32,000 nt of DNA, from the NCBI RefSeq assembly GCF_000253055.1, contig NC_016070.1:360001-392000 (forward strand). The letters run 5' to 3'. The first letter of the stretch is position 1. Each line of letters begins with the position of its first letter. A program made the position numbers and the translations under genes. The stretch is from Thermoproteus tenax Kra 1 (GTDB lineage: Archaea; Thermoproteota; Thermoprotei; Thermoproteales; Thermoproteaceae). Shown one piece after another: positions 7,340-31,452 of the stretch. The notes beneath the pieces were generated by a model that saw only the letters and a program-made list of their open reading frames with translations, was not told the origin of the DNA and did no database searches.

Positions 7340-7496
7340 GAATAGAGTATTAATATAGTGGCCGCCGCTCTTGAGGGCTCAAGCCTCTATAAATAAATAA
7401 TTTTATTGGATTATATTTATAAAAATAGATTTAGTTATCTACATTCTATCGCGGAAGCCGTAGGTGACGGATAAATAGGGAAGACGGGACGTTGTC

Positions 7497-7982
7497 ATGC
7501 CGCTAAAAGTAGGAGACAAGGCCCCGGACTTCGAACTATTGAACGAGGAGCTCAAGCCAGTGAGGCTCTCCAACGTGCTAAAGGAGGGGAGACCGGTGAT
7601 ACTGCTGTTCTTCCCCGGCGCGTTCACATCGGTCTGCACAAAGGAGCTCTGCACATTCAGAGACAAGATGGCTCTCTTGAACAAGGCCAATGCGGCCGTG
7701 ATCGGCGTCTCGGTCGACAGCCCCTTCGCGCTGAAGGCGTTCAAGGACGCCAACAGGCTGAACTTCCCGCTGCTCTCAGACTTCAATAGGACGGTCATAG
7801 GCATGTACGACGTAGTGCAAGCCAATCTCCTCGGGTTGCCCCTCTACCACTTGGCTAAACGCGCAGTCTATATCATAGACTCCACGGGCACTATCAGATA
7901 CGTCTGGTACAGCGACAATCCCCTCGACGAGCCGCCCTACGACGAGGTCATAAAGGAGGCTGAGAAGATAGCCCAGAAATAA
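7497..7982 (+). CDS. bcp: Peroxiredoxin (AhpC/TSA, Bcp-like)
   Basis: The N-terminus VGDKAPDFEL and active site FFPGAFTSVCTKELCTF (peroxidatic Cys plus nearby resolving Cys) are present. A TATA-like GATAAATAGG sits about 27 nt upstream, and a T5 run follows the stop. Confidence 0.85.
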   Translation: MPLKVGDKAPDFELLNEELKPVRLSNVLKEGRPVILLFFPGAFTSVCTKELCTFRDKMALLNKANAAVIGVSVDSPFALKAFKDANRLNFPLLSDFNRTVIGMYDVVQANLLGLPLYHLAKRAVYIIDSTGTIRYVWYSDNPLDEPPYDEVIKEAEKIAQK

Positions 7983-16091: not shown

Positions 16092-17453
16092 TTGGATTTA
16101 ACGCTCGTGATACCTCGCTTGGTGATATCGTCCTTTAAAGGCATGTCGGGGAAGACCATAATCTCGCTGGCGCTCATGTACGGCCTCTCCAGGAGGGGCC
16201 TCAGAGTGGCCCCCTTCAAGGTGGGGCCCGACTACATCGACCCCAGCTACCACGCGGCGGCGGCTGGGAGGCCCAGCAGAAACCTCGACGCGGTTCTGAT
16301 GGGGGAGAGGGGGGTGGTGGAGCGTTTTGTGAAGTTCTCGAGGGGCGCGGACATCGCCGTTGTGGAGGGGGTCCAGGGCCTCTACGACTCCTTCGACGGC
16401 GTCTCCGAGCTGGGCTCCACGGCGCAGGTGGCCAAGCTGTTGAGGGCCCCCGTGGTCCTCGTGTTGAACGGGGAGAGGGTGAACAGAACTCTCAGGGCCG
16501 TGGTGAGGGGGCTGAGGCAGTTCGACCCGGAGGTCAACATACCCGGCGTTATTTTGACAAACGTGGCAGGTAGCCAGGCGGAGAAGCTGAGGAGGGCCCT
16601 CCCCGAGGAGGGCGTGGAGGTGCTGGGGGCTGTGCCGAGGAGCGAGAGGCTGGCGGAGGTCTTCTCCTACAGACACTTGGGCCTCACGCCGGTGGGCGAG
16701 AGGGGCGACGTCCCCAACATAGTGGAGGCCCTCGAGAAATACGTCCTGCCCTACATCGATCTAGACGCCGTCGTGGCCCTGGCTAAATCGGCCGGAGACC
16801 TCCCCTACGGCCCTCCGCCCGAGGGGGACCCCGCGGGGTCGGGCACGTGCAGAATCGGTATCGTCCTCGACAGAGCCTTCACCTTCTACTACCCCGAGGT
16901 CTTCGAGGAGGCCAAGTCTCTGGGGGAGGTGGTGTTTTTAGACTCGCTGGAGATGCAGGAGCTGCCCCCGGTGGACGTGGTCTTCGTAGGCGGGGGCTTC
17001 CCCGAGACCTCCGCCGAGGAGCTGGAGAGGAACAGAGCCTTCAGATCCTCGCTTTTGAGGTACATCGAGCGGGGAGGCAGGCTGTACGCCGAGTGCGGCG
17101 GCCTCATGTACCTCACCTCCTCCATAGTGGTAGAGGGCTCGGAGTACGAGATGGTCGGCGCGATAGACGCCGTAACTGTGATGCTGAAGAGGCCGGTGGG
17201 GAGGGGGTACGCCTGGGGCGTAGTCGAGGGGAGGACCCCCGTCGCCCCTCCGGGGACCAGGCTGGTGGGGCACGAGTTCCACTACTCCAAGCTCGTCCTC
17301 AGGGAGAGGGTGGAGACCGCTATAAGGCTGGAGAGGGGGGTGGGGATCGGCGGCGGCAGAGACGGCGTTGTGAAGGGCAATATGCACGCGCAGTACCTCC
17401 ACCTGCACCCCTACACCTACAGCGCTTTGAGGGCGCTATGCCGCTCTACGTAG
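16092..17453 (+). CDS. dsrN: Cobyrinic acid a,c-diamide synthase homolog (CbiA/CobB family), likely DsrN siroheme amidase
   Basis: The P-loop region SFKGMSGKTIISLAL, PFKVGPDYIDPSYH, and glutamine amidotransferase motifs YAECGGLMYL and GHEFHYS are present. Context is a dsr locus. The track start is TTG 16092, but GTG 16107 is plausible (see the promoter-box finding). Confidence 0.75.
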   Translation: MDLTLVIPRLVISSFKGMSGKTIISLALMYGLSRRGLRVAPFKVGPDYIDPSYHAAAAGRPSRNLDAVLMGERGVVERFVKFSRGADIAVVEGVQGLYDSFDGVSELGSTAQVAKLLRAPVVLVLNGERVNRTLRAVVRGLRQFDPEVNIPGVILTNVAGSQAEKLRRALPEEGVEVLGAVPRSERLAEVFSYRHLGLTPVGERGDVPNIVEALEKYVLPYIDLDAVVALAKSAGDLPYGPPPEGDPAGSGTCRIGIVLDRAFTFYYPEVFEEAKSLGEVVFLDSLEMQELPPVDVVFVGGGFPETSAEELERNRAFRSSLLRYIERGGRLYAECGGLMYLTSSIVVEGSEYEMVGAIDAVTVMLKRPVGRGYAWGVVEGRTPVAPPGTRLVGHEFHYSKLVLRERVETAIRLERGVGIGGGRDGVVKGNMHAQYLHLHPYTYSALRALCRST

Positions 17454-18091
17454 TGGGGGCGGGCCCCGGCGACCCCAAGCTCTTGACCATCAGAGCTAGG
17501 GAGCTGCTCGAGCAAGCCGACGTGGTGGCATACGGCGACCTCGTGCCGGAGGAGGTGGCGAGGATCGCCAAGAGGGCGCGTGTTGTAAAAATTGGCCACA
17601 GGAGGGCGGAGCACGACGCAGCTATAGACGCCCTGATAGAGGAGGCGCGGAGGAGCAACGTGGTGATTCTTAAGAACGGCGACCCGGCCATATTCGGGAG
17701 GGGGATCAAGATATGTAAAAAGGCTAGGGAGAGGGGGGTTCCGTGCGAGGTTGTGCCGGGCGTCAGCTCTTTTACGGCCGCGGCCGCCCTATATCAGATA
17801 GAATTAACCGATGGAGAGGCGTTGCGCCACGTGGCTTTGTTGGCATATCCCAACTTTGGACCGGGCGTTTTGAAGGAGGTCAGAGCCGACACCATCGTAA
17901 TCTTTATGATGGGAGATAGGCTGCCTGAAGTAGCAGGCGTTTTAGCTGAAGAATGCGACCCGGAGAGGGTGTTCTTGTGTGCGGGTGTGACGATAGGCGG
18001 ATATTGCGAGGAGCTCAGCACCGAAGAATTGAGCGCACGAAAGGGCGTCAGACCGGCCCTAGTTATAGCTCAAAAATGTAGAAAGCATTAA
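17438..18091 (+). CDS. cobA: Uroporphyrinogen-III C-methyltransferase (SUMT; CobA / CysG-A type)
   Basis: MPLYVVGAGPGDPKLLTIRA... and VVILKNGDPAIFGRG...VPGVSS are tetrapyrrole methylase signatures. The ATG at 17438 overlaps the dsrN end by 16 nt. The longer track ORF (from 16847) is an out-of-frame run-through of dsrN. Confidence 0.8.
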   Translation: MPLYVVGAGPGDPKLLTIRARELLEQADVVAYGDLVPEEVARIAKRARVVKIGHRRAEHDAAIDALIEEARRSNVVILKNGDPAIFGRGIKICKKARERGVPCEVVPGVSSFTAAAALYQIELTDGEALRHVALLAYPNFGPGVLKEVRADTIVIFMMGDRLPEVAGVLAEECDPERVFLCAGVTIGGYCEELSTEELSARKGVRPALVIAQKCRKH

Positions 18092-18389: not shown

Positions 18390-18725
18390 CTATACGCAAC
18401 CTGTTGGTTTCGGCGCTCCTGCCACTTTACAAGCGCCGTGGGCAGGCCCCGAGGGGAACAGCTGATATATCTTCTCCAGGCTGAAGCCTGTCTCCTTCGT
18501 GAGCATCTTTATCGGTGGACAAGAGCCGTAGGTCTCCCAGTACTCCCTAAGGTACTTAATTACTTTCCAGTGCTCCTCTGTCATCTGCTGTACGCCTTCA
18601 AGCTCTCTCGCCATCCACTCTGCTATTTTTTCATCCCAGTCCTCCGTGTTCTGCATAAAGCAGTCCTCGTCTAATATAACCTTTTTTCCGTCTACGGTGT
18701 ATTCACCCGGACATTTCACCGGCAT
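18390..18725 (-). CDS. dsrC: DsrC (dissimilatory sulfite reductase gamma subunit / TusE family)
   Basis: 111 aa. The C-terminal arm ...HGACKVAGAPKPTGCV has both conserved cysteines, the penultimate Cys and a Cys 10 residues upstream. The core WDEKIAEWMA...HWKVIKYLREYW is typical of DsrC. Confidence 0.9.
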   Translation of the reverse strand: MPVKCPGEYTVDGKKVILDEDCFMQNTEDWDEKIAEWMARELEGVQQMTEEHWKVIKYLREYWETYGSCPPIKMLTKETGFSLEKIYQLFPSGPAHGACKVAGAPKPTGCV

Positions 18726-20502: not shown

Positions 20503-21641
20503 AGCCCGCACCTCATCACAGACCATATAGAGTAGTTGGTCATGTCCTTCAATCTTACAAAGAACCTACTTGGCGGCGGCGGGAACTTTGCAGGGTTCTC
20601 GTAGTTCCATGAGACCATAGTGGCCTCCTCGAAACCTGTCAGAATGAAGCAGATGACCCTTCCGTCGTATCTGGCGTCTGAATGGCCCAACTTCAGCTCG
20701 TCCGCTATTCTGTTTGATACGATCTCGCTCTGGAAGTGTGCAACCGATCCAGCCTTAGGTACAGGCAGATTAGTGGCGTCGCCGAGCGCATACTCAGCGC
20801 CTGTCGCTCCCTGTGCCTGAATCTGGAGCGTGTGTCTGTCGACAGGAACCCACCCCGCCTGATCCCCAATGCCCGATTTGATTACTACGTCGCTGCCGCC
20901 GTGGGGAGGCACTGCCATAATTAGATCGGCCTTTATCTCGCTCGACCCTACGACTTTCCCCTCCTCTATCGAGTTCACTTGGAATTTTGTGTGATATTCG
21001 AAGCCCCACATCGACAAAGTCTCCTCAAGGAATTTGTTCACCTGAGGTTGCGCGTGCAAATGGGGAGCCACTGTGGTGAATATAACCTTGGTCTTAGCTC
21101 TGAGTCCCGTGGCCATAAGGTAGTCGTTTAAAAGCCCGAGAAACTCGTAGGGAGCCACTGGACATTTATATGGTGTAGAGGTGACAGCCACCGCCACAGT
21201 TCCGCCTTTGAATTCTCTCAACATTTCCCTCACCCTCTTGGCGCCCTCGTACGTCCATACGGTCGACCACCATTTGCCGTAGCCGGAGAACGAGCCGACC
21301 TTTACTGTAGCCCCTGTAGCCACCACTAGATAATCATATTTATGTTCTTTTCCTGACTGTGTTATTATTTTCTTATTATTTAAATCTATTTTTGAGACAG
21401 TATCTTTTTCTAATTTTATCAGTGGATTTAGAAGTTTTGATACAGATCTGAACATCACGTCGGGCACCAACTCTTGAAACGGTACATACAAGAACCCGGG
21501 CTGATAGGTCTGGATCTCGTTTTGTTCAATTAATAAGATGGATACGTCGCCTCTCTTGATTTCGCCGTGTAGCTTAGCGGCGAGCTTATTGGCAGTAAAT
21601 ATTCCGCCAACACCGCCTCCAACTATTACAATGGTTTTCAT
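20499..21641 (-). CDS. sqr: Sulfide:quinone oxidoreductase-like FAD-dependent disulfide oxidoreductase
   Basis: The N-terminal FAD fold is KTIVIVGGGVGGIFTANKLA. TSTPYKCPVAPYEF (conserved Cys), a second Cys in GRVICFILTG, and ALGDATNLPVPKAGS are present. Length is 380 aa. Confidence 0.75.
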   Translation of the reverse strand: MKTIVIVGGGVGGIFTANKLAAKLHGEIKRGDVSILLIEQNEIQTYQPGFLYVPFQELVPDVMFRSVSKLLNPLIKLEKDTVSKIDLNNKKIITQSGKEHKYDYLVVATGATVKVGSFSGYGKWWSTVWTYEGAKRVREMLREFKGGTVAVAVTSTPYKCPVAPYEFLGLLNDYLMATGLRAKTKVIFTTVAPHLHAQPQVNKFLEETLSMWGFEYHTKFQVNSIEEGKVVGSSEIKADLIMAVPPHGGSDVVIKSGIGDQAGWVPVDRHTLQIQAQGATGAEYALGDATNLPVPKAGSVAHFQSEIVSNRIADELKLGHSDARYDGRVICFILTGFEEATMVSWNYENPAKFPPPPSRFFVRLKDMTNYSIWSVMRCGL

Positions 21642-21672
21642 AGGACCTTGGCTATTAAGAATTAAAAATAAA

Positions 21673-21681
21673 TTATTAACA
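21673..21681 (-). promoter_or_regulatory. TGTTAATAA box upstream of sqr
   Basis: Perfect box 40 nt before ATG 21641. Confidence 0.55.
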
Positions 21682-21816
21682 CTATTAATGAGAATATTAT
21701 TTTAAATTTCAGAATTATTAAATATTTTAAAAAAGACTTTAAATATATTATAAATATGATTTAACATTGATATATTGTAGTATTTATCTAGTAAATATTT
21801 ATAAAGTATAAAATAA

Positions 21817-22305
21817 CTAGGTCTTAATTGCTTGCAACTTGACGCTACCCTCTAGTCCTCCCTCGGGGAAGTACATGTCCCTAAGCACTCGGAATCCGCA
21901 CTGGGACAACAGCCGGCCCAACCTTGTCTCCTCCGGCGGTGTCCCCCTCTGTAGTTCGGCGTAGGTCTGTCTATCGTCCACATATTCAACGTAGAGGAGG
22001 TCGCCCTTCTCCATATATCTGCCGAAAAGGCAGTAGAGCTCCCTCTCCAAGTCGGTGTTCAACACCTTTATGTTGAACAACTCGGCCCAAGGGGAGTAGT
22101 ACGGCGGTCTCCCCAGAAAGAGCACGGCGTGAGCCACCAGTCGTCCGCCCCTCCATATCTCAAGATATATCTCCTCGGCGAGCCGGCCCCTTTTGCTTTT
22201 AATGACGAAGCGTCTGTCCGACAACAAGTCAGAGAGCACAGAGAGATCGATCTTTCGATAAAAAGGCTCAGTTGAGCGGAGTTGAAGATGCGCTTTCCCC
22301 CACAA
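21817..22305 (-). CDS. Hypothetical protein, last gene of the dsrAB-1 operon
   Basis: 162-aa ORF with a TTG start at 22305 that overlaps the upstream ORF by 38 nt. An alternative GTG lies at 22239. I recognised no family with confidence. Confidence 0.45.
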   Translation of the reverse strand: MWGKAHLQLRSTEPFYRKIDLSVLSDLLSDRRFVIKSKRGRLAEEIYLEIWRGGRLVAHAVLFLGRPPYYSPWAELFNIKVLNTDLERELYCLFGRYMEKGDLLYVEYVDDRQTYAELQRGTPPEETRLGRLLSQCGFRVLRDMYFPEGGLEGSVKLQAIKT

Positions 22306-22753
22306 TCTTTACTGCGTCCACAGGGCCGTACCTAGACATAAGCCATTTTAGATAGCTCTCAGCCTCCTTCTCTAACAACGCTCTTGCTATCCTTGCCCAA
22401 TTGTACATAGCCCAGTGGGGCTCTATGTTCAGCTTGAGAGAGAGGGCGCCTTCAGAGCCGTTGTCAAAACACCTGAGCGGATATAATGTTATAACGATAT
22501 CCAGCTTCATTTTATCCCAAGGCACGTCTCTCAGCGTCCTCTTCGCAGATGTCTCGTCCTCAAGCCTATCGCATGGTACATTTAGGCCGAATCTAATCTT
22601 GGGATAGATGAAGCCCAACATGTACTTCTCGCCAGTGAAATAAGATATTGCAAAAATATCTAGGTCGATTACGTGGAAGGCCTCAGTAGTGCCCGCCTCT
22701 TGTTTTACCAAGGATAGATGGAACTCTTGGGAGGTTACCCTCCTAAATTCCAT
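22268..22753 (-). CDS. Hypothetical protein, third gene of the dsrAB-1 operon
   Basis: 161-aa ORF. Its ATG at 22751-22753 overlaps the dsrB-1 end by 11 nt. I recognised no motif. Confidence 0.5.
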   Translation of the reverse strand: MEFRRVTSQEFHLSLVKQEAGTTEAFHVIDLDIFAISYFTGEKYMLGFIYPKIRFGLNVPCDRLEDETSAKRTLRDVPWDKMKLDIVITLYPLRCFDNGSEGALSLKLNIEPHWAMYNWARIARALLEKEAESYLKWLMSRYGPVDAVKIVGESASSTPLN

Positions 22754-23900
22754 CTCTGAACCTAGGCCATATATCGCCTCTGCTCCTGAAGTGCATATAG
22801 GTGCGCACGTGGTCGGGCACTTTCTGATAGAACGCGTGTACCTTATCCACGCCGACCAAGGATATGAACCTCTGCCACCCTATTCTGTTTATGAAATCTC
22901 CAAGCCTCTCGCCTGGTTGCGCGTGCTCCCTCCACACGTCTATCACCTTTTTGACGACCGCTACGATCTCCTCATAACGCGGCGGATTGGCGGGTAGCCA
23001 CGGTATCAATACGCGGCCCAATCTGGGGCCGCCGCCTGTGTTCGACATCTTTCCTCCCACGACGATCGAAACGCCTACGTCTTGCGGATCGTAGTCGAAG
23101 GCATCGCAGTTCTCCTTACATCTAGCGCAGTTTATGCACTTATCCCCAATAAGTACAAGCTTCACTTTGTCTCCCTCTCTCCTTAGGCTCAACGCGCCTG
23201 TCGGACACACTTGTACTATGAAGACTTGCGACTCTGGTATCTTGGCCAGAGCCTTAGGCGGCGGCAGACAATACGACAACATCTCCTCTCTGATCTTGGG
23301 CGGAGCGCCCCACTGGCCAACTATGACGATATCCATCGCTGTACCTCCCGCGCACATGGCCGGACACCCTGAGACAAACACCCTCAGCTTCGCCGGCAAC
23401 GGCACCTCGCCTGTGAAATAGGGCTTCAGGGCATCGCCAAGAGCCTTACTTATCGATGGCGAGTCCACCACTGCAGTAGTACATGTCAGATACGCCGTAC
23501 ATGAATTTATGCCCCAGAGCGACCGACCCCAGCCGCCGACGGGGAAACCCATCTTCTCGGCCTCCTCCTTGATCTTGAGCGCTTTGTCGAGGGAGTCTGT
23601 CAATATCTCCAAGTTGCCGGCCATAGTGACCCTCATGGCGCCCACTCCAAGTTTGTCCGCAATATCGGCAAACTGATCCAAAGTGTCAGCGCTAAGCCTT
23701 GCGTTGGGCGGCATCGCTATCTTGACCGTGAAGACGTGCTCGCCGGTCGCAGAGATGTGCTCAATGATGCCGTTCTCGTGGAACTTTCTATCGATCCACT
23801 TGCCGTAGTTGCGCTTGATTATATCCGGCAGATATTTATCGAGGTCTATGGGGAATACTTTCTGTAGTCTCGCTGCCCTGGGGTTAGTAGGCGACGTCAT
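22743..23900 (-). CDS. dsrB: Dissimilatory sulfite reductase beta subunit, copy 1
   Basis: The siroheme/[4Fe-4S] motifs CTAYLTC (C-x5-C) and SGCPAMC (C-x3-C) are present, with a ferredoxin insert CPTGA...CINCARCKENC. ATGA coupling to dsrA-1. Confidence 0.9.
   Translation of the reverse strand: MTSPTNPRAARLQKVFPIDLDKYLPDIIKRNYGKWIDRKFHENGIIEHISATGEHVFTVKIAMPPNARLSADTLDQFADIADKLGVGAMRVTMAGNLEILTDSLDKALKIKEEAEKMGFPVGGWGRSLWGINSCTAYLTCTTAVVDSPSISKALGDALKPYFTGEVPLPAKLRVFVSGCPAMCAGGTAMDIVIVGQWGAPPKIREEMLSYCLPPPKALAKIPESQVFIVQVCPTGALSLRREGDKVKLVLIGDKCINCARCKENCDAFDYDPQDVGVSIVVGGKMSNTGGGPRLGRVLIPWLPANPPRYEEIVAVVKKVIDVWREHAQPGERLGDFINRIGWQRFISLVGVDKVHAFYQKVPDHVRTYMHFRSRGDIWPRFRDGI
23527..23600. repeat. 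74-nt inverted repeat with one mismatch, arm A (dsrB-1)
   Basis: Reverse complement of 26809-26882 except for one base (T versus C at 26862). It encodes TDSLDKALKIKEEAEKMGFPVGGWG. Confidence 0.9.
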
Positions 23901-25114
23901 GTCTTAATAGCCTCCACTAACTTCAGGTACGACTCTCTTTCCTCCTTGCTCAACACGGCGTAAGGCACCTCGTCGCCCATCTTGGCTAGCGGCGGCATAC
24001 CCTCAAGCTCGATCCCAGCCTTCTTTACAAAGTTCTCAATGCCTACTTGCATTATATAATCGCCTAGGCGATACTTGGGTTGCGCCTCCTTGTCCCACGG
24101 CTCTATCAGTTTGAACGCCAGATCTATCGCCTTTTGGTGATCCTCAGGATCCAGATAGCCTACGAACCATCCCAACTTGGGACCAAATCTGCCCTTGACT
24201 CCGCCGCCTATGACTACTGCCACCTTTCTCTTCCTCCCCGGCTTTATCGCCGGGAACGCCCTCCTTATACACTCCATCGACTTCTTGCACTTGGCTCCGT
24301 CTATCTTCAGCTCCTTCCCGTCCCAAGTTATGGCGCCGGAGGGGCACCTCGCCGCAAGCTCCTTGGGGTCGACCTCGCCGGCCTCTATCTTCCTCCTCAG
24401 AAGCTCTTGGTCCACCTCGGGGGCGCCCTCCCATACGCCGATGAGACCTAGGTCTGCCCTATTGGCCCTAGCACAGTCCATGGGGCACCCTGAGAACTTA
24501 ATCTTGAACTTATAGGGGAAGTTCGGCGTCGCTATGGCGTCGTTGACTCTCTTGTCCTTATGAAATTCGGCGTACCACTTCAACGTGTCATACAAGGCGA
24601 ACTCGCAGAGGGCTGGGCCCACGCACGCGTTAAGGGCCCTAATGGCGTCTCCGCTACCGCCTACATCAGTGCCGATGGATCTCAACGCGTCGACCATTTC
24701 CTCTGCCTTGTCCTTTGTTAGATTCAAGACGAAGGCCCCTGTCTGGCCAACAATCTCAATGAGCCCGACGCCCAACTCCCGAGATATCTTGGTAATCTGT
24801 CTAACGAAGTCGGTCTTCCAGAACTTGCCGGGCGTGTGGAATATTCTGAAGTGCGTCTCCTCGCCTCCGTTGGGCACCCACGGCCTAGACCATCTGGATA
24901 GCACGCCGGTGTTCACAAATTCGACCTTGACGGCGCCCGGCCCCCAGGGAGTTTTCCGGGCAACGAGGCCGACGCCGTAAATATGTAGAGGATACCTAGT
25001 TTTCCTCAGCTCTCTAACGTGGCTGGGCCAAGGGCCTTTTTCTAACTCTTCCAATATCTCATTAGCCCTCTTTAACAGTTCATCGGGCGGCGGTAGATTT
25101 GGAGGAGCCGCCAT
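23897..25114 (-). CDS. dsrA: Dissimilatory sulfite reductase alpha subunit, copy 1
   Basis: GPWPSHV, CVGPALC (C-x5-C), SGCPMDC (C-x3-C) and the ferredoxin-like insert CPSGA...CKKSMEC are present. I chose the ATG at 25112-25114 (MAAPPN...). The TTG at 25153 would extend into the AT-rich promoter. Confidence 0.9.
   Translation of the reverse strand: MAAPPNLPPPDELLKRANEILEELEKGPWPSHVRELRKTRYPLHIYGVGLVARKTPWGPGAVKVEFVNTGVLSRWSRPWVPNGGEETHFRIFHTPGKFWKTDFVRQITKISRELGVGLIEIVGQTGAFVLNLTKDKAEEMVDALRSIGTDVGGSGDAIRALNACVGPALCEFALYDTLKWYAEFHKDKRVNDAIATPNFPYKFKIKFSGCPMDCARANRADLGLIGVWEGAPEVDQELLRRKIEAGEVDPKELAARCPSGAITWDGKELKIDGAKCKKSMECIRRAFPAIKPGRKRKVAVVIGGGVKGRFGPKLGWFVGYLDPEDHQKAIDLAFKLIEPWDKEAQPKYRLGDYIMQVGIENFVKKAGIELEGMPPLAKMGDEVPYAVLSKEERESYLKLVEAIKT
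24240..24441. repeat. 202-nt perfect inverted repeat, arm A (inside dsrA-1)
   Basis: I checked base by base that this is the exact reverse complement of 25953-26154. It encodes (I/V)GVWEGAPEVDQELLRRKIEAGEVDPKELAARCPSGAITWDGKELKIDGAKCKKSMECIRRAFPAIKPG. Confidence 0.95.
24585..24625. repeat. 41-nt perfect inverted repeat, arm A (dsrA-1, C-x5-C siroheme motif region)
   Basis: Reverse complement of 25766-25806. It encodes CVGPALCEFALYDT. Confidence 0.9.
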
Positions 25115-25143
25115 AGGACTGCCTCTCCGAAAAATTTTAAGAG

Positions 25144-25152
25144 TTATTAACA
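25144..25152 (-). promoter_or_regulatory. TGTTAATAA box upstream of dsrA-1
   Basis: Perfect box 38 nt before ATG 25114, followed by CTTAAAATTT at about -27 to -18. The extended site GTTAATAAC is a perfect palindrome. Confidence 0.55.
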
Positions 25153-25245
25153 AGTTAAAAGAAATATATTAAAATTGAAAAATCTATAGAATTTAATATT
25201 TTTCTATATATATACATTATTTTACATATTTTAATACACAAATAG

Positions 25246-25254
25246 TGGCAATAA
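25246..25254 (+). promoter_or_regulatory. TGKTAATAA box variant (TGGCAATAA) upstream of dsrA-2
   Basis: 40 nt before ATG 25286, followed by CTATTTTTATAA. Confidence 0.4.
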
Positions 25255-25285
25255 TCTATTTTTATAATCATCGGTACACTTTTTT

Positions 25286-26521
25286 ATGGAGGCATCGCAA
25301 AAGAGGGCAGAAGTGGACGAGCTTGCGCGAAGCGCATCAAAGGTGTTAGAGCGTCTAGAGAACGGGCCTTGGCCGAGCCACGTCAAAGAGCTCAAGAAAT
25401 CCAAGTATCCCCTAGAGGCTTACGCCGCCGGTCTAGCTGCCCGTAAGACGCAGTGGGCGGCCGGCTCGGCGAAGATAAGATACGTCTACACTGGCTTTAT
25501 CGCCAGAAGGACGAGGGATGGAAAATATGCCGAACTGCACTTCCGCGTCTGGCAACCTTCGGGGCAAATATATACTACTGATTATCTCAGGAGACTCTTA
25601 GATTTCGCGGACACTTACGGCTTAGGTCTAATAGAGATTCTAGGCCAACAGGGTATGATGATAATATCTGTGGATCCCAGCAGAGCCGACGAGGCCATAG
25701 ACGCCCTTAGGGCCTTGGGCACAGACGTCGGAGCTACCGGCGATACCATCAGAGAGCTGGCCACATGCGTGGGCCCAGCCCTCTGCGAGTTCGCCTTGTA
25801 TGACACATTGGCTGCCAGAGACTACTTCTTGACGCACCCTAAGATCTATGAATGGATGAGCAACCAGCTGTTTCCCTTTAAGTTCAAGGCGAAGTTCTCC
25901 GGCTGTCCCATGGACTGCACAAGAGCGGTCCACAGGTCCGATTTCGGCTTCGTCGGCGTATGGGAGGGCGCCCCCGAGGTGGACCAAGAGCTTCTGAGGA
26001 GGAAGATAGAGGCCGGCGAGGTCGACCCCAAGGAGCTTGCGGCGAGGTGCCCCTCCGGCGCCATAACTTGGGACGGGAAGGAGCTGAAGATAGACGGAGC
26101 CAAGTGCAAGAAGTCGATGGAGTGTATAAGGAGGGCGTTCCCGGCGATAAAGCCTGGTAAGAACCGCAAGATAGCAGTGCTCGTGGGAGGCCACGTGAAG
26201 GGGAGATTCGGCGGCAAGATGGGGAAGCCGCTCGCCATAGTTAACAGTGTTGAGGAGGCCATGGGTTGGGTCGTGAAGACCGTCGAATCTTGGATGGATG
26301 GCCTCGAGACCGGCGTAAGCAAACACAAGGACAGAATCGGCGACTTCATTATGAAGGTGAACTTCAAGAAATACACCGAGGAGATCCTCGGAGTAAAAGT
26401 GCCCTACAAGCCCTCTCTACACGGGAGGCTGGGCGCCGGCGCTGTGTTAGACGACAACGAGAGAAAGATGTGGCTGGAGTGGGTTCAGAACATCGTGAAG
26501 GAATACGAGGAGAGGATATGA
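25286..26521 (+). CDS. dsrA: Dissimilatory sulfite reductase alpha subunit, copy 2
   Basis: It carries the same motif set as copy 1 (GPWPSHV, CVGPALC, SGCPMDC, CPSGA...CKKSMEC). By eye it is only roughly half identical to copy 1 outside the identical tracts. Confidence 0.9.
   Translation: MEASQKRAEVDELARSASKVLERLENGPWPSHVKELKKSKYPLEAYAAGLAARKTQWAAGSAKIRYVYTGFIARRTRDGKYAELHFRVWQPSGQIYTTDYLRRLLDFADTYGLGLIEILGQQGMMIISVDPSRADEAIDALRALGTDVGATGDTIRELATCVGPALCEFALYDTLAARDYFLTHPKIYEWMSNQLFPFKFKAKFSGCPMDCTRAVHRSDFGFVGVWEGAPEVDQELLRRKIEAGEVDPKELAARCPSGAITWDGKELKIDGAKCKKSMECIRRAFPAIKPGKNRKIAVLVGGHVKGRFGGKMGKPLAIVNSVEEAMGWVVKTVESWMDGLETGVSKHKDRIGDFIMKVNFKKYTEEILGVKVPYKPSLHGRLGAGAVLDDNERKMWLEWVQNIVKEYEERI
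25766..25806. repeat. 41-nt perfect inverted repeat, arm B (dsrA-2)
   Basis: Reverse complement of 24585-24625. Confidence 0.9.
25953..26154. repeat. 202-nt perfect inverted repeat, arm B (inside dsrA-2)
   Basis: Exact reverse complement of 24240-24441. The spacer between the arms is 1511 nt and contains both dsrA 5' halves and both promoters. Confidence 0.95.
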
Positions 26522-27633
26522 GCGCCAACCCCGCTGATAGACTGAGGAAGAACTTGCCGGTGCCCTACACCAAGTTTCTGCCGGAGCAGTTAAAGCGTAA
26601 CCTTGGCAAATGGATAGACCGCAAGTTCCACGGCTACGGGATAATTGAACACATCTCCGAGACCGGAGACAGAATATTTACCGTGAAGATAGGTACGCCG
26701 CCCAACTTCCGCCTCAGCACCTCCACCCTAAGGGAGTTAGCTAAAGTGGCGGACGAGCTTGGCATAGGCGCCCTGAGGTTTACCAGGAACGGAAATATTG
26801 AGTTTATCACAGACTCCCTCGACAAAGCGCTCAAGATCAAGGAGGAGGCCGAGAAGATGGGCTTCCCCGTCGGCGGCTGGGGGCCTACGCTCTGGTCCGT
26901 GAACTCGTGCACGGCCTTCCTCACTTGCACAACGGCGGTTGTGGACTCGCCATCAATAACTAAGGTTCTGTACGATGCGCTTAAACCGTACTTCACAGGA
27001 GAGATAACATTGCCGGCGAAGCTAAGGATAAACGTGTCGGGCTGCCCCAGCGCGTGCGGCGGATTTACTGCAGATATAAACCTCGTCGGCCATTACGGCG
27101 ATGCTCCAACTTACGACCCAGAGCGTATAAAGCTCTGTCTGCCCAAGAGCGCCAAGGCGCTGGAGACCGGGCACGTGCCGGAGGTGGCTGAGGTTTGTCC
27201 CACAGGCGCCATTAAAGTCTACGGGAAGCCGGACGGCACTGTAGGCCTAGACGTGATCCGCTCTAAGTGTATAGCGTGTGGCAGGTGTAGAGATGTGTGC
27301 GACTGGATGGACTTCGACGAGAGCAAAGCAGGCGTCGCTGTACTAATCGGCGGAAAGGCCAGCAACACGGGGACGGGCCCATGGCCCTCGGTACAAGTGA
27401 TACCTTGGGTTCCCGCAGTGCCGCCGGACTACAAAGAGATAGTCGCCGTTGTCAAAAAGATAGTCGATGTGTGGAGGAGCCACGCCAGGACAGGGGAGCG
27501 CATTGGAGATTGGCTGAACAGAGTCGGCTTCGAGGAATTCTACAAACTATTGAACATACCGCTCACTAGGTGGAACCAGCCGCCTAGATTCTCTGGGGAG
27601 TTCGGGATAAGGCAGTTCTTCCAGAGGGCGTGA
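26518..27633 (+). CDS. dsrB: Dissimilatory sulfite reductase beta subunit, copy 2
   Basis: The ATG at 26518 forms an ATGA overlap with the dsrA-2 stop. Motifs are CTAFLTC, SGCPSAC and CPTGA...CIACGRCRDVC. The longer track ORF (from 26266) is an out-of-frame run-through of dsrA-2. Confidence 0.9.
   Translation: MSANPADRLRKNLPVPYTKFLPEQLKRNLGKWIDRKFHGYGIIEHISETGDRIFTVKIGTPPNFRLSTSTLRELAKVADELGIGALRFTRNGNIEFITDSLDKALKIKEEAEKMGFPVGGWGPTLWSVNSCTAFLTCTTAVVDSPSITKVLYDALKPYFTGEITLPAKLRINVSGCPSACGGFTADINLVGHYGDAPTYDPERIKLCLPKSAKALETGHVPEVAEVCPTGAIKVYGKPDGTVGLDVIRSKCIACGRCRDVCDWMDFDESKAGVAVLIGGKASNTGTGPWPSVQVIPWVPAVPPDYKEIVAVVKKIVDVWRSHARTGERIGDWLNRVGFEEFYKLLNIPLTRWNQPPRFSGEFGIRQFFQRA
26809..26882. 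repeat. 74-nt inverted repeat with one mismatch, arm B (dsrB-2)
   Basis: See 23527-23600. Confidence 0.9.
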
Positions 27634-28127
27634 GCGTATACGACAAAATAGGTGAGCTCATCCTAGCTTTACGGTTTAGATATCATGTTGAAGAATTCGG
27701 GGATGCCTCTGAGCTGGCCAACTACATCAAAGAATTGGAGTCAGGCGAAGGCGTCGACGCGCTGCTCTCGTTGGAGGGACGTCCGCGGCCGTATCTAATA
27801 TCGGCGTATAGAGAGGGAGACGACGTTGTGCTGGCACTCGTAGACCTAGACGATGTGAGATCCCTCAAGACGGGAGTCAAAGTGGAGGAACTAGAGGAGG
27901 TGACGAGTGCTCTCGGCGCTGAAAAATACGGGTCTAATGGACTGGCCCCCTTCTTTTTCCCCATAATGGAGAGAGATGGCGAGGCGTTTTTTGCCCTAGG
28001 CCTCAAGGCCGTGTTGCCGCTCACAGTGGTCACTGGCGGCGCCATAGATGAACTGTTGGAGATCTTAGAAGTGCGAGGCGATGAATTTTTCAACGCTATA
28101 GTCGGCGCTTTGAAGTCCTTATATTGA
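27630..28127 (+). CDS. Hypothetical acidic protein, third gene of the dsrAB-2 operon
   Basis: 165-aa ORF. Its GTG start forms a GTGA overlap with the dsrB-2 stop. It shows no similarity by eye to the ORFs downstream of dsrAB-1. Confidence 0.5.
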   Translation: MSVYDKIGELILALRFRYHVEEFGDASELANYIKELESGEGVDALLSLEGRPRPYLISAYREGDDVVLALVDLDDVRSLKTGVKVEELEEVTSALGAEKYGSNGLAPFFFPIMERDGEAFFALGLKAVLPLTVVTGGAIDELLEILEVRGDEFFNAIVGALKSLY

Positions 28128-28150
28128 CGATGCTTGAGATGCTATCGTCG

Positions 28151-28186
<36 letters not shown>

Positions 28187-28372
28187 GATTTGAGCATATA
28201 ACCTTCATGGCAGAGCAGGTGAAGACAACCGAGAAAGGCTTAAACATCGGTGCATTCAACGCGGCGGCGCGGGCCAACGGCGGATGGCCCTGGCAGGGGG
28301 ACGCCACAATGCCCGTCCCAGCCGCGGCCCATTAACCCCGGGCAACGGGCGAGGCCCCCACGGTAGAGGCCC

Positions 28373-28387
28373 CGCCCTTTAGGGCGG
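28373..28387. repeat. Hairpin-forming 15-mer CGCCCTTTAGGGCGG, copy 2
   Basis: Identical 15-mer that overlaps the TAA stop (28379-28381) of the convergent wHTH gene. Confidence 0.7.
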
Positions 28388-29077
28388 CGCGGTCATAAAC
28401 TCTTCCAACTTTTTTCTAAAGTCTTCCAACTCTTTTTGTAAACGACATACTCCGAGACACGGCGCCTTGCAGACGACTATTGAATTACCTATAATGTAAT
28501 GATCGCCCGTATCCCACGCCAATCCTATTCTGTAGAGCCCCTCGGCGAAGAGGGGCAATGCGGCTGTAAATATCCGTTCGGGGATCTCTAGGATCTCGGA
28601 CAATCGTAATATTGACGATCTGCCCGAGACTAACAACAACATAGACGATGTCGTACAGAGTTTTTCTATGGGCGCTAGATACAAAGACATGCCTAACTTT
28701 CTCAAGGCGGCCAGAACCACTTGTGCCAGCGCTCCCACTTGCCAGAGCGGCGCCGATGTGTCCCATCGCGTCTTAAGTTGGACTAAGGGATATTGTGGCG
28801 GCGCGCATCCTTTACAGAGACAGTAGAGGGCGCCCCTCGCTGTAAGCCTTACCTTCCCCTCATATTTTTCTAAAAGGCCGCGCCTCAGCGCCTTCTGGAA
28901 TTTGGCGTAGGCCGTAGAAAAGGGCATGTTCAACCTCCTTGCCGCCTTGTATACTGTGCCGCCCGTGTTCTCGGCAAAAAAGGAGAGCAGGTCATCCACA
29001 GCCAGATCCTCGTTGCAGGTCCACCTCAGCTCCCCGAGATCTACCTTTGCCGGCTTGATGAGAATAATATTTCCCAT
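28379..29077 (-). CDS. Winged-helix DNA-binding protein (putative regulator), paralog of 18765-19247
   Basis: GGTVYKAARRLNMPFSTAYAKFQKALRRGLLEKYEGKVRLTARGALYCLCKGC aligns with PATAYKIANDLNYHFSQVYRKVRRLEKYGLIE...STVRGLIVCYYYNC of the paralog. It is transcribed divergently from dsrM. Confidence 0.5.
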   Translation of the reverse strand: MGNIILIKPAKVDLGELRWTCNEDLAVDDLLSFFAENTGGTVYKAARRLNMPFSTAYAKFQKALRRGLLEKYEGKVRLTARGALYCLCKGCAPPQYPLVQLKTRWDTSAPLWQVGALAQVVLAALRKLGMSLYLAPIEKLCTTSSMLLLVSGRSSILRLSEILEIPERIFTAALPLFAEGLYRIGLAWDTGDHYIIGNSIVVCKAPCLGVCRLQKELEDFRKKLEEFMTAPP

Positions 29078-29135: not shown

Positions 29136-29164
29136 AGTTTATTTAACCCGCGCCAGTGGATCGC

Positions 29165-29929
29165 ATGGATTGGACAGACGTTATGCTCTATGGCGTCTTC
29201 CCCTATCTGTCTCTTTTATTGTTTTTCGGCGGGGTGATATACCGTTTTGCCAATTGGATCTCTGCACAGGGGCTAACAGGCCTTTACTCTGTCGCCGTGA
29301 AGAGCTACACTTGGAGCTTCGGAGCTAGAGCCTCCGAAGTTGTAAAGAGGGTGTTTGTGCTCTATACGCTGACTTTATCGGATAGAATGTTGTTAGTGGG
29401 CTCTCTCCTCTTCCACTGGGGGATATGGTTGGCTCTGCTCGGCCATCTCTCGATGATCATACCCCCTGAGACCCTCGGAATGCCTAGCTCGCTTCATGAG
29501 GCTATAGCGCTCTACGTCGGCGGAGGCGCTGGAGTTGTAGCTCTTATCGGCTTATTGATATTGTTAATCAGAAGAATAGTAAGACAAGATGTAAGACGGT
29601 TGAGCTTCCTTGACGACTGGTTCGCCTTAGTCCTATTATTAGGCATAGTCGTGTTGGGCCTCTATCAGACGTTGATACTACACCCCGATTATATGCACAC
29701 AGTCGCGCCGTGGGTTCAAAGCGTGTTGGTGGGCTCCCCCGATCTCTCAATAGTGGCTACATGGAGTTTAGTAACAAAAATCCATGTGCTCCTGGCACTC
29801 ATATTTATAGCCTATGTGCCCTTCGGAAAATTGATCCATCCGTTTTCTTTCTTAGCGATGCCCACGCTCTGGAAGCCGCCTACAAAACTTTATGGATATT
29901 TATTGGCTAAGCTTCGACCTTCCCAGTAA
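29165..29929 (+). CDS. dsrM: DsrM (NarI/HdrE-like membrane di-heme cytochrome b)
   Basis: It has about 5 TM segments with His-containing helices (LFHWGIWLALLGH, KIHVLLALIF) and lies immediately upstream of dsrK. I prefer ATG 29165 to the GTG at 29156, because it gives the same 38-nt spacing to the promoter box seen at other genes. Confidence 0.8.
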   Translation: MDWTDVMLYGVFPYLSLLLFFGGVIYRFANWISAQGLTGLYSVAVKSYTWSFGARASEVVKRVFVLYTLTLSDRMLLVGSLLFHWGIWLALLGHLSMIIPPETLGMPSSLHEAIALYVGGGAGVVALIGLLILLIRRIVRQDVRRLSFLDDWFALVLLLGIVVLGLYQTLILHPDYMHTVAPWVQSVLVGSPDLSIVATWSLVTKIHVLLALIFIAYVPFGKLIHPFSFLAMPTLWKPPTKLYGYLLAKLRPSQ

Positions 29930-29970: not shown

Positions 29971-31452
29971 ATGCAATCGTCGACTCATGAACATTTAGAA
30001 ATAAAACTTGGTGATACTTCTAATATTAAGACATTTAAAGCAAAAATAGATCAAGTAAAGATACTGCACAATAGAGTAGGTCTCTCTCTGCCCCCGGATC
30101 CCATGGGCCATATTAGGACGAGGATCAAGGAGGCTATTAAAAACAATAGAAATGTGAGAATGGCCATAGAGGTCTGCGTCCACTGCGGAGTCTGTCTCGA
30201 TAACTGTCCCACGTATGTACGAACTAAGGATATCTATAACTCGCCGGTGGGCCGCGCCGAGCTCATAAGAGCTTTTCTGAAGGCGGATTCAGTCAGCGGA
30301 AGGCTCTTCGGCAAGGCTGTCGGCGCAGTCAAACTCACTGAGGAGTACCTCGAGAAGATCTATACATATTATTATCAATGTCTGGAGTGTAGAAAATGTG
30401 CATATTCATGTCCCTTCGGCATCGATCAAGCAGACGTCACAAGGCTAGTGAGGGAGATAATGTACGAGGCCGGCATAGTATCGCGCTACGTGGCGACAGT
30501 GATAGACGCAGTGGAGAGGACTGGGACCAACTTAGGCATGAAACCTGTGGCCGTTATCAAATCCATCACCTTCGCAGCTGGGGAGATTAAGGAGGAGAAA
30601 AAAGTCGACGTAATATATTACATCTACCGAGATGATACAAACGAGCTCAAGAAGTATATCGGCGACAAGGAGGTGGCATCTTGGAAGCTCGACGCCGTGC
30701 CGCCCGATGAGAGGCCAGAGGCCCTTTTGGTACCGCCCTCCGCAGATTTCTTTACTAACATAGAGACTCTTAAGGGGTATATGCTGTTCCTCCATCTTAT
30801 CGGCGTTAAGTATGCCTTTTCTACGGAGATGGCCGAGTTGGCAAACTTCGGTCTGTTTGTCAGCGAGAGACACCTCCACTATATAGGCATGAAGGTAGTT
30901 AACGCCGCTCTTAAACTGGGGGTGAAGACAGTGATAGCGGGCGAGTGCGGCCACGGATGGAGGGCGTTCAAGAACTACACGGGCCCAGAGCTTGAAAGAA
31001 GGGGCATGAAGACGCTACACATATTCCATCTAGTGATAGATGCTATAAAGAGGGGGGCGATAAAGCTCAACCCCGACGCCAACGGCGATATAGTATACAC
31101 CTTCCAAGACTCGTGCAACTACGCGAGAGGCGGAGACTTGACGGAGGAGCCCCGATTCATTATGAGACACGTGGTTAAGAAGTACACAGAAAGTCCGCAC
31201 AATAGGGAAAAAACGTGGTGTTGTGGAGGCGGAGGCGGCTTATTGACCGACGAGCTTCTTCCTCTAAGAATACAATATGCCAAAAATTGGTATGAAGATG
31301 CGCTACAGGTCGGAGCGAGCCACGTCGTGAGGGCCTGCGCCATCTGCAAAGCTCAATTAAGCCATACGATCCCATATTTGAATAAAGAGTATAAAAGAGA
31401 GATCACATACAGCGGCCTAATGGACTTAGTCTATAGGGCCCTCGTCGTCTAA
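29971..31452 (+). CDS. dsrK: DsrK (HdrD-like Fe-S oxidoreductase with CCG domain)
   Basis: Two ferredoxin motifs (CVHCGVCLDNCP and CLECRKCAYSCP) are present, plus CCG-domain cysteines (FQDSCNY...WCCGGGGG...CAICK). Confidence 0.85.
   Translation: MQSSTHEHLEIKLGDTSNIKTFKAKIDQVKILHNRVGLSLPPDPMGHIRTRIKEAIKNNRNVRMAIEVCVHCGVCLDNCPTYVRTKDIYNSPVGRAELIRAFLKADSVSGRLFGKAVGAVKLTEEYLEKIYTYYYQCLECRKCAYSCPFGIDQADVTRLVREIMYEAGIVSRYVATVIDAVERTGTNLGMKPVAVIKSITFAAGEIKEEKKVDVIYYIYRDDTNELKKYIGDKEVASWKLDAVPPDERPEALLVPPSADFFTNIETLKGYMLFLHLIGVKYAFSTEMAELANFGLFVSERHLHYIGMKVVNAALKLGVKTVIAGECGHGWRAFKNYTGPELERRGMKTLHIFHLVIDAIKRGAIKLNPDANGDIVYTFQDSCNYARGGDLTEEPRFIMRHVVKKYTESPHNREKTWCCGGGGGLLTDELLPLRIQYAKNWYEDALQVGASHVVRACAICKAQLSHTIPYLNKEYKREITYSGLMDLVYRALVV

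Follow-up and report, generated by a model that had tools for sequence, protein, structure and literature searches.

Two head-to-head dsrAB operons in Thermoproteus tenax and other Thermoproteaceae, with evidence for gene conversion of one dsrA domain and for inversion through it

How can two genes that have diverged strongly over most of their length still share 202 consecutive nucleotides (nt) without a mismatch? The question is raised by a pair of dsrAB operons, encoding the alpha and beta subunits of sulfite reductase, in a 32,000-nt stretch of the Thermoproteus tenax Kra 1 genome (RefSeq assembly GCF_000253055.1, contig NC_016070.1, positions 360,001 to 392,000), which we call the window and in which all T. 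tenax coordinates below are counted. We conclude that the best explanation, to which we give a probability of roughly 0.85, is conversion of a ferredoxin-domain island of dsrA together with inversion, both by general homologous recombination between the inverted paralogs.

The type-1 operon lies on the minus strand, with dsrA1 at 23897-25114 (alpha subunit, 405 amino acids (aa); TIGR02064, 441.4 bits against a cutoff of 392.85) and dsrB1 at 22743-23900 (beta subunit, 385 aa; TIGR02066, 451.8 bits against a cutoff of 341.5). The type-2 operon lies on the plus strand, with dsrA2 at 25286-26521 (alpha subunit, 411 aa; TIGR02064, 331.7 bits, under the same cutoff of 392.85) and dsrB2 at 26518-27633 (beta subunit, 371 aa; TIGR02066, 354.3 bits against 341.5). 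The dsrA and dsrB open reading frames (ORFs) overlap by 4 nt in each operon, and the operons diverge from a 171-nt spacer (25115-25285) with a GC content of 19.9%, against 54.6% for the window. By NCBIfam, copy 1 is a canonical DsrAB and copy 2 is more diverged: DsrA2 misses the TIGR02064 equivalog cutoff, no other family comes close to DsrA as its best match, and its alignment to the DsrA of Archaeoglobus fulgidus (3MM5_A) has E=1.7e-52, from which we read it as a divergent DsrA. In our set of DsrA homologs (numbered with the prefix P), DsrA1 is identical to P0089 and DsrA2 to P0001, both of T. tenax. The C-x5-C and C-x3-C siroheme-[4Fe-4S] motifs are kept in all four proteins, as CVGPALC and CPMDC in both DsrA1 and DsrA2, CTAYLTC and CPAMC in DsrB1, and CTAFLTC and CPSAC in DsrB2. 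An earlier note on this DNA, made from the sequence alone, had described two complete, divergent dsrAB pairs around an AT-rich spacer of 171 nt, with these Cys motifs in all four proteins; we reproduced all of the coordinates and located each motif.

Three repeats connect the two operons. The longest has its left arm at 24240-24441 (minus strand, in dsrA1) and its right arm at 25953-26154 (plus strand, in dsrA2), shows 0 mismatches over 202 nt and is not extendable by one base. Its arms encode a ferredoxin-like domain (VWEGAPEVD...AFPAIKPG) that aligns to residues ~237-305 of 3MM5_A, and both begin in codon phase 1. We refer to the part of DsrA before this tract as N and to the part after it as C, with N1 covering aa 1-222 and C1 aa 295-405 of DsrA1, and N2 covering aa 1-220 and C2 aa 293-411 of DsrA2. 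The 1511 nt between the arms (24442-25952) hold N1, both promoters and N2, and would be inverted by a crossover. The second repeat, of 41 nt with 0 mismatches, pairs 24585-24625 (minus, dsrA1) with 25766-25806 (plus, dsrA2) and spans the CVGPALCEFALYDT siroheme/[4Fe-4S] motif. The third lies in dsrB and pairs 23527-23600 (minus, dsrB1) with 26809-26882 (plus, dsrB2) over 74 nt with 1 mismatch (TDSLDKALKIKEEAEKMGFPVGGWG). The positions and mismatch counts of all three repeats, and the inverted orientation, shared frame and spacing of the long arms, had been given in the earlier note and came out the same in our recount.

Codon alignments gave a protein identity of 53% for DsrA1/DsrA2 and 59% for DsrB1/DsrB2, with a nucleotide identity of 62%. 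Outside its tracts, dsrA retains 41% protein, 53% nucleotide and 34% third-position identity, and the same codon is used at just 35% of the identical residues; the paralogs are thus as strongly diverged, with differing codons, as had been claimed for them (the codon strings for EIVAVVKK that had served as the example lie at 27436 on the plus and 22947 on the minus strand). We compared the longest perfect run with 10,000 permutations that preserved codon-position classes. Permuted alignments had a longest perfect run of 13 nt on average, with maxima of 30 nt (dsrA) and 26 nt (dsrB), and the observed runs of 202 nt (dsrA) and 53 nt (dsrB) both exceed these maxima. Silent-site identity in the tracts is far above the background of the gene pairs, in agreement with the proposal that the patches go beyond protein constraint.

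Repeats are a classic source of assembly collapse, and a collapsed or chimeric record of the T. tenax genome had been named as the finding that could overturn the claim of gene conversion; nothing more specific speaks for it. Assembly relied on Sanger reads (mean length 616 nt) from clones of 2.5 and 5 kb, with primer walking to finish the sequence, which makes a collapsed 202-nt repeat unlikely. The same tract recurs in the complete genome of Pyrobaculum oguniense and in more than 10 independent assemblies, and we attach practically no probability to this reading.

Comparison with relatives separates the remaining explanations of the identity. We assembled ~130 related loci (numbered with the prefix L) from species-representative genomes, metagenomes and exact-protein lookups. 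Perfect within-genome dsrA runs measure 202 nt in T. tenax, 220 nt in L003, 254 nt in L053, 204 nt in L049, 215 nt in L056 and 203 nt in L059, and in P. oguniense TE7, whose copies are separated by 8 kb, 224 nt match perfectly. Identity in the tract is 97-99% within L002 and for L011 with L038. The convergent operons of L125 have a near-perfect tract, and the tract has eroded in L051 (runs of 27, 26 and 31 nt) and L054 (63 and 41 nt). In most, though not all, of the genomes compared it is identical or nearly so between paralogs; L037, the third copy in P. oguniense, has a tract identity of 63% and stands outside the homogenization.

In T. tenax, L003 and P. oguniense the tract paralogs are 100% identical, against 48-58% in the flanks of the same paralogs. 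Between genomes the tract is ~76% identical (T. tenax with L003 or P. oguniense) or 88% identical (L003 with P. oguniense), and flanks of orthologs are 68-78% identical, so that outside the tract orthologs are closer than paralogs. In the comparisons with T. tenax, third-position identity is 47-52% in the tract versus 44-54% in the flanking orthologous segments. Because paralogs are identical within genomes while the tract drifts like its flanks between genomes, this is the pattern of concerted evolution and not of constraint on protein or nucleotide sequence. On these alignments gene conversion at the tract appears essentially certain, and the earlier proposal of conversion between the paralogs is borne out both by the contrast of 100% (paralogs) with 76-88% (orthologs) and by boundaries that are specific to lineages.

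The competing idea is that purifying selection with codon bias, or a nucleotide element embedded in the gene (an RNA or a binding site), accounts for the identity, and it draws on the fact that no part of DsrA is more conserved than the one encoded here. Elsewhere in the genes, however, the same amino acid is written with the same codon just 35-49% of the time, and about half of the third positions of the tract differ between T. tenax and other genomes, as in the flanks. There is no Rfam match (structured RNA or curated element) at E<=0.1 in 21500-29000, and the tract of L037 is only 63% identical. We rejected these explanations as refuted by codon use, by the divergence of L037 and by the silent-site drift of the tract, and assign them a negligible probability.

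One between-genome comparison differs from those with T. tenax. In columns 690-888 of the dsrA codon alignment, with L003 set against the P. oguniense copies L004/L034, the tract is 88% identical and its third positions 76%, with 46-58% at the third positions of the flanks. The similarity could reflect exchange of the tract between the lineages or a slower local rate.

Tract boundaries, whose comparison in related genomes had been proposed as a check, do differ between lineages, above all in dsrB. The dsrA tracts are perfect over 167-254 nt, or eroded; in dsrB the longest tract measures 291 nt and some lineages have none. Within the 5' half of this gene we found 291 perfect nt in L003, a Pyrobaculum metagenome-assembled genome (4048-4604 versus 7234-7792), 93 + 46 nt plus shorter runs in L002 and L052, and runs of 80, 66 and 55 nt in L050. 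The 5' part of L003 dsrB2 is converted towards type 1 and scores slightly better as type 1. Judged from these runs, dsrB conversion is active and lineage-specific. At the site of the 41-nt repeat, no exact run of at least 20 nt occurs in the three within-genome dsrA comparisons that span it (L003, L002 and P. oguniense), which suggests that the 41-nt stretch is a short lineage-specific conversion tract, perhaps particular to T. tenax.

We then typed the parts of DsrA (N, tract and C) separately against T. tenax types 1 and 2 at ~125 loci, and the two types were clearly separated. In Thermoplasmata, Vulcanisaeta and Nitrososphaeria the single-copy genes have type 2 in every part (N2-C2-B2), and a separate Pyrobaculum clade, to which the third copy of P. 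oguniense belongs, has type 1 in every part (N1-C1-B1). Since these outgroups are purely of one type or the other, the duplication predates the split of Thermoproteus and Pyrobaculum. The head-to-head layout of T. tenax (B1-A1 <> A2-B2) is also found in L003 and in eleven metagenome contigs (L048-L056, L059 and L088). From typing and layout, the locus can be described as an ancient, inverted pair of paralogous dsrAB operons in T. tenax and other Thermoproteaceae. P. oguniense TE7 has three dsrAB sets (L004 1-6000, L034 and L037; 835-877 kb), and the 8 kb between its tract-sharing copies hold a DsrK-like gene, a flavoprotein gene resembling sulfide:quinone reductase (SQR), a DUF1641 gene and two HemD genes. 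The T. tenax homologs lie outside the dsrAB pair, SQR-like and DUF1641 genes beyond dsrB1 and DsrK beyond dsrB2.

Conversion is one possible outcome of exchange in the island, and crossover is another. As the copies are inverted, a crossover in the island inverts everything between the arms, and as the arms share a reading frame, the products are intact chimeric genes, N1-C2 with dsrB2 and N2-C1 with dsrB1. In-frame chimeras of this kind, which the earlier note had predicted for T. tenax from the geometry, exist in relatives. The fullest case is L002, a 24.6-kb contig with the layout B2-A <> A-B1, in which the dsrB partners are swapped relative to T. tenax and all four ORFs are full length. 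Compared with L003, its flanks are collinear at 92-93% identity and its central 2 kb match at 93.8% in the opposite orientation. In a sliding window, one L002 dsrA matches L003 dsrA1 (90-100%) up to the tract and L003 dsrA2 (89-100%) beyond it, the other shows the reverse pattern, and the switch falls inside the tract in both genes. Compared with L052, the flanks of L002 are 98.3-98.7% identical and the inverted centre 97.8%, and marker columns show the same reciprocal switch. L002 differs from both relatives by inversion of precisely the inter-tract segment, and its products are N1-C2-dsrB2 and N2-C1-dsrB1.

Further N1-C2-B2 chimeras were found in L062, L128, L129, L130, L001 and L125, and N2-C1-B1 chimeras in L060, L061, L064, L131, L011, L126, L127 and L125. 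Among database proteins, P0128 and P0132 are chimeric (N1-C2), and the chimeric P0121, P0129, P0130 and P0133 are the products of L130, L129, L128 and L131, respectively. C type and dsrB type always go together and the N type alone reassorts; chimeric dsrB genes, with a crossover in the dsrB tract, were looked for and none was found, the conversion in the 5' part of L003 dsrB2 being the sole signal. In neighbour-joining trees of N1 and of N2 the recombinant state is scattered across the tips, and pairs that are 98-99.9% identical differ in isomer state. We consider it very probable, from these alignments, that real inversions through the tract have occurred repeatedly in the Thermoproteaceae. 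T. tenax Kra1 as sequenced is the unrecombined (parental) isomer.

Some loci depart from the simple isomer pair. In the Thermoproteales metagenome-assembled genome that holds L125 (7100-15623; same contig as L007), the operons are convergent with 3.8 kb between them, containing DsrE, DsrC and a DsrM-like gene, and each dsrA is a chimera, one of them N2-C1-B1 and the other N1-C2-B2. An apparent frameshift close to the 5' end of the N2-C1 gene could mark a pseudogene or a sequencing error. L127 (4-1832) and L057 (4065-5893) share 95% identity over a stretch that runs from a HemD gene across N2 and ends with the tract. Past it they diverge completely, one running into C1-dsrB1 and the other into C2-dsrB2. 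No second dsrA occurs upstream within the ~0.9 kb (L127) or 5 kb (L057) of sequence examined, so the exchange partner must lie further off. L001 (1-3778) and L129 (1-4700) show a third configuration, B2'-C2'-N2 <> N1-C2-B2, in which the C2-dsrB2-type module present on both sides forms a 1.29-kb inverted repeat of 88% identity. We considered L001 as a chimeric contig and dropped the idea, as the independent NCBI assembly L129, 94% identical, has the same layout; the configuration arose either by a very long conversion that replaced C1-dsrB1 or by acquisition of a type-2 module from another lineage.

How far can the recombinant contigs be trusted? Several points weigh against inversion. Every recombinant isomer stems from a metagenome or a metagenome-assembled genome, and no isolate genome with a recombinant isomer turned up among the 120 DsrA homologs typed. 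The isolates in which the two types coexist, T. tenax and P. oguniense, have the parental arrangement, and P. aerophilum (P0004), the only other named isolate cluster, carries an unrecombined N2-C2 dsrA. The support for inversion comes from relatives and not from T. tenax reads. L060, L061, L131 and L128 start inside or beside one repeat arm, L062, L064 and L130 start within the central segment, and ten contigs terminate in the tract, as an assembler does at an unresolved perfect repeat; several recombinant contigs could in principle be mis-joins through that repeat. L061 is 99.5-99.95% identical to L053, and L060 is 98.1-99.6% identical to L048, in opposite isomer states, but with arms of 254 and 140+60 identical bases these pairs cannot by themselves exclude a mis-join, and as isomers they are suggestive. 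Finally, activity of the chimeric enzymes is a presumption.

Taken to their limit, these points give an account in which crossovers (almost) never happen, only conversion does, and the chimeric dsrA genes of metagenomes are assembly mis-joins: recombinants come from short-read metagenomes, many of their contigs start at or near an arm, and isolates are parental. L002 does not fit this account, since it spans both arms with long flanks and the longest exact run common to its arms is 83 nt, so that an assembly at k=141 cannot be misled by the repeat. Nor does L125, which spans both arms in a 280-kb contig. Recombinant layouts also recur between assemblies, being shared by L060 and L131 (96% identical), by L011 and L126 (two metagenome-assembled genomes, 98.5% identical) and by L128, L129, L130, L062 and L001, whose collinear matches have 88-94% identity in the pairs compared. 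The same layout in independent assemblies of diverged lineages argues against a pure artefact. In the bacterial tuf system, moreover, conversion and inversion arise from the same recombination events (PMC6735719). We therefore hold conversion without crossover to be improbable.

We propose that conversion and inversion at this locus would work as follows. Homologous recombination would copy one dsrA version over the other across the 200-250-nt ferredoxin-like island, with more sporadic copying within the 5' half of dsrB and around the Cys motif. Once identical, the island would be the sole substrate long enough for further exchange, which would make the process self-perpetuating, and it would stay identical within a genome while the remaining gene stays ~50% diverged. 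An indel lies just upstream of the tract and strongly diverged sequence downstream of it. The edges of the island would be fixed where the proteins turn type-specific, either because mismatches block extension of the heteroduplex or because longer conversions are selected against; persistence of the island would thus depend on frequent conversion plus selection or mismatches that limit its spread into the flanks. Part of the exchanges would be resolved as crossovers, inverting the intervening segment, and the chimeric enzymes presumably work. No member of a recombinase, integrase or invertase family occurs among the scanned ORFs of the window, and with no recombinase gene nearby the host machinery for homologous recombination is the likely agent. 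A site-specific inverton does not match the locus either, given the lack of a recombinase in these ORFs and arms that are 200-250 nt of coding sequence drifting at the silent-site rate.

The spacer is part of the segment that would be inverted. On each of its sides, a G[GT]TAATAA-like element precedes an AT-rich stretch that resembles a TATA box and lies ~25 nt upstream of the ATG. On the dsrA1 side these are GTTATTAAC at 25143-25151 and AAAAATTTTAA at 25130-25140, and on the dsrA2 side GGCAATAAT at 25247-25255 and TATTTTTATAA at 25257-25267. The blocks are conserved in an alignment of 11 spacers, with L002, L003, L048, L050-L054, L059 and L088 as the relatives that show them. The block shared by both promoters reads G[GT]TAATAA[GC], and many relatives have an extra TTATTAAC copy mid-spacer. 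We infer from sequence that these elements act as promoters. The shared blocks may represent a site for a common regulator or a pair of transcription factor B recognition element and TATA box (BRE/TATA), and they suggest that the two operons are co-regulated. As both promoters carry the same conserved blocks, inversion may alter the combination of modules more than their regulation.

A stronger version of the inversion idea holds that selection maintains the island as a recombination joint at which the 1.5-kb cassette flips with appreciable frequency, so that populations would be mixtures of isomers. Inversion would then be frequent and useful, reassorting an N module and its promoter with either C/DsrB module and its downstream genes and so creating enzyme heterogeneity. 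Several observations can be read this way: the position of the tract has stayed the same since Thermoproteus and Pyrobaculum diverged, even where copies are 8 kb apart or convergent; the recombinant state is spread widely over the tips of the N1 and N2 trees, and near-identical pairs differ in it; ten contigs break in the tract, as expected if the reads hold both junctions; and the four ORFs are intact in both isomers. Against this, contig breaks and some mis-joins need no more than the perfect repeat, an island that passively perpetuates itself by conversion would persist without any benefit, the promoters share conserved elements so that a promoter swap may matter little, and the tract has eroded in some lineages (L051 and L054). 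We regard such a switch as a doubtful, though not negligible, possibility, both as an account of the locus and as a claim about selection and frequency. If it were true, a clonal population would be a mix of the two isomers, with as many as four combinations of DsrA and DsrB modules, and a recombinase-free mechanism resembling phase variation would act on a core respiratory enzyme of hyperthermophilic archaea.

The homogenized domain itself has an altered cysteine pattern. Both beta subunits keep the C-x2-C-x2-C of the ferredoxin domain (CINCARC in DsrB1 and CIACGRC in DsrB2). Both T. tenax DsrA copies read CKKSMEC where A. fulgidus DsrA has CVRCMHC, with the middle Cys replaced by Ser (24270-24290, DsrA1 aa 276-282; 26104-26124, DsrA2 aa 274-280). 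Most Thermoproteaceae relatives carry CKKSM[EH]C in DsrA, and the deep type-1 relative L039 retains CVKCMEC. From this pattern, the ferredoxin-like domain of DsrA may lack a cluster or bind one of another kind. Filters demanding C-x2-C-x2-C in DsrA (as in PMC12948486) would lose Thermoproteaceae dsrA genes.

The operons sit in a dsr/siroheme island. In each, dsrA is directly followed by dsrB, and dsrC and dsrMK are nearby, which is the gene context used as a criterion for DsrAB. By profile match, DsrN lies at 16092-17453, DsrC at 18390-18725, a DsrM-like gene at 29156-29929 and DsrK at 29971-31452. One side of the island also contains HemD, DsrE-like genes, a tetrapyrrole methylase, a TrmB/MarR-type regulator, DUF1641 with an SQR-like gene, and DUF1122, and the opposite side has DsrE along with the DsrM-like gene and DsrK. 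Further ORFs lie near the dsrB genes (22268-22753, minus; 27630-28127, plus; 28379-29077, minus). Those directly 3' of dsrB1 and dsrB2, of 161 aa and 165 aa, have no match in Pfam or NCBIfam, nor are they related to one another. Similar-sized ORFs follow dsrB in relatives, of 161-163 aa after B1 (L125, L126) and 164-166 aa after B2 (L128-L130), and these ORFs may encode type-specific, uncharacterized accessory proteins. A mechanically called ORF at 16847-18091 (plus) overlaps the DsrN gene in another frame, and only its aa 200-382 match tetrapyrrole methylase; the real gene for this methyltransferase of the siroheme pathway probably starts near 17450.

The T. tenax genome paper lists TTX_1185-1188 as 'dsrABCGK' without comment and gives growth on sulfate as unpublished data only. 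The passages on gene copies in DsrAB reviews and phylogenies (PMC4351914, PMC10504309, PMC10591310, PMC12948486) treat dsrAB as an operon with one copy per genome. Where they take up second copies it is mostly for Moorella, and for Thermoproteota they do no more than flag that multiple copies occur. Publications searched on conversion, chimeras and inversion of Thermoproteaceae dsrAB yielded nothing on these topics in the parts retrieved. DsrAB is the standard marker for sulfate/sulfite reducers, and according to the relevant sections of PMC4351914, PMC7174415 and PMC12948486 the archaeal-type sequences of Thermoproteaceae stand near the root of dating trees. In this family, dsrA is a mosaic in which one third evolves in concert between paralogs and the N-terminal two thirds reassort with the C part and dsrB, and trees of concatenated DsrAB, percent-identity clades and molecular dating of Thermoproteaceae clades could be distorted unless the segments are analysed separately. 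Short-read assembly and binning are affected as well, with dsr loci that break, or may be mis-joined, at the tract. The natural N1-C2/B2 and N2-C1/B1 chimeras offer a ready test of which module sets the properties of each enzyme. The locus also gives Thermoproteota (Crenarchaeota) a clear natural example in which conversion goes along with inversion, a process whose experimental dissection has been mainly in bacterial tuf genes.

The closest parallel is tufA/tufB of Salmonella enterica, whose recombination goes back to Abdulkarim and Hughes 1996 (as cited in PMC6735719); according to the passages on tuf in PMC6735719 (citing Hughes 2000) and PMC5485169, conversion events there also invert the segment between the genes, in up to 50% of events. 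As in that pair, inverted dsrA paralogs would exchange sequence by homologous recombination, with both conversion and inversion and no dedicated recombinase. The tuf genes, however, are near-identical along their full length and encode the same protein, so that their inversion changes gene order and not the protein, whereas the dsrA paralogs are ~41% identical in protein outside the tracts, with homogenization limited to one domain-sized island, and their inversion would yield chimeric subunits and swap the partner subunit gene and the downstream genes. The dsr case is moreover archaeal and hyperthermophilic, and its evidence is comparative rather than experimental. For archaea, Archibald and Roger (around 2002) reportedly described recurrent partial gene conversion between paralogous subunits of the chaperonin (thermosome), which resembles the present case in that subunits of a hetero-oligomer are part-homogenized and part-divergent with lineage-specific conversion; head-to-head inverted geometry and inversion isomers are not known to have been described for thermosome paralogs. 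In the R64 shufflon, the G segment of phage Mu and type I hsdS loci, inverted repeats within genes join a constant 5' part to alternative 3' parts, by means of a site-specific recombinase acting at short sites and usually with one expressed gene and silent cassettes. Inversion at the dsr locus would likewise swap gene parts in frame within coding sequence, but no recombinase family was found in the 32-kb window, the arms are ordinary coding sequence of 200-250 nt that drifts between species, and both products are complete, promoter-bearing genes. Moorella also has more than one dsrAB set per genome, with copies of different phylogenetic depth; unlike those of T. tenax, its copies lie in separate regions, and the passages on them report no exchange between them. 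What is new here is the combination of deeply diverged paralogs, a single homogenized domain and inversion that would reassort enzyme modules, by a recombination mechanism that is itself known from tuf.

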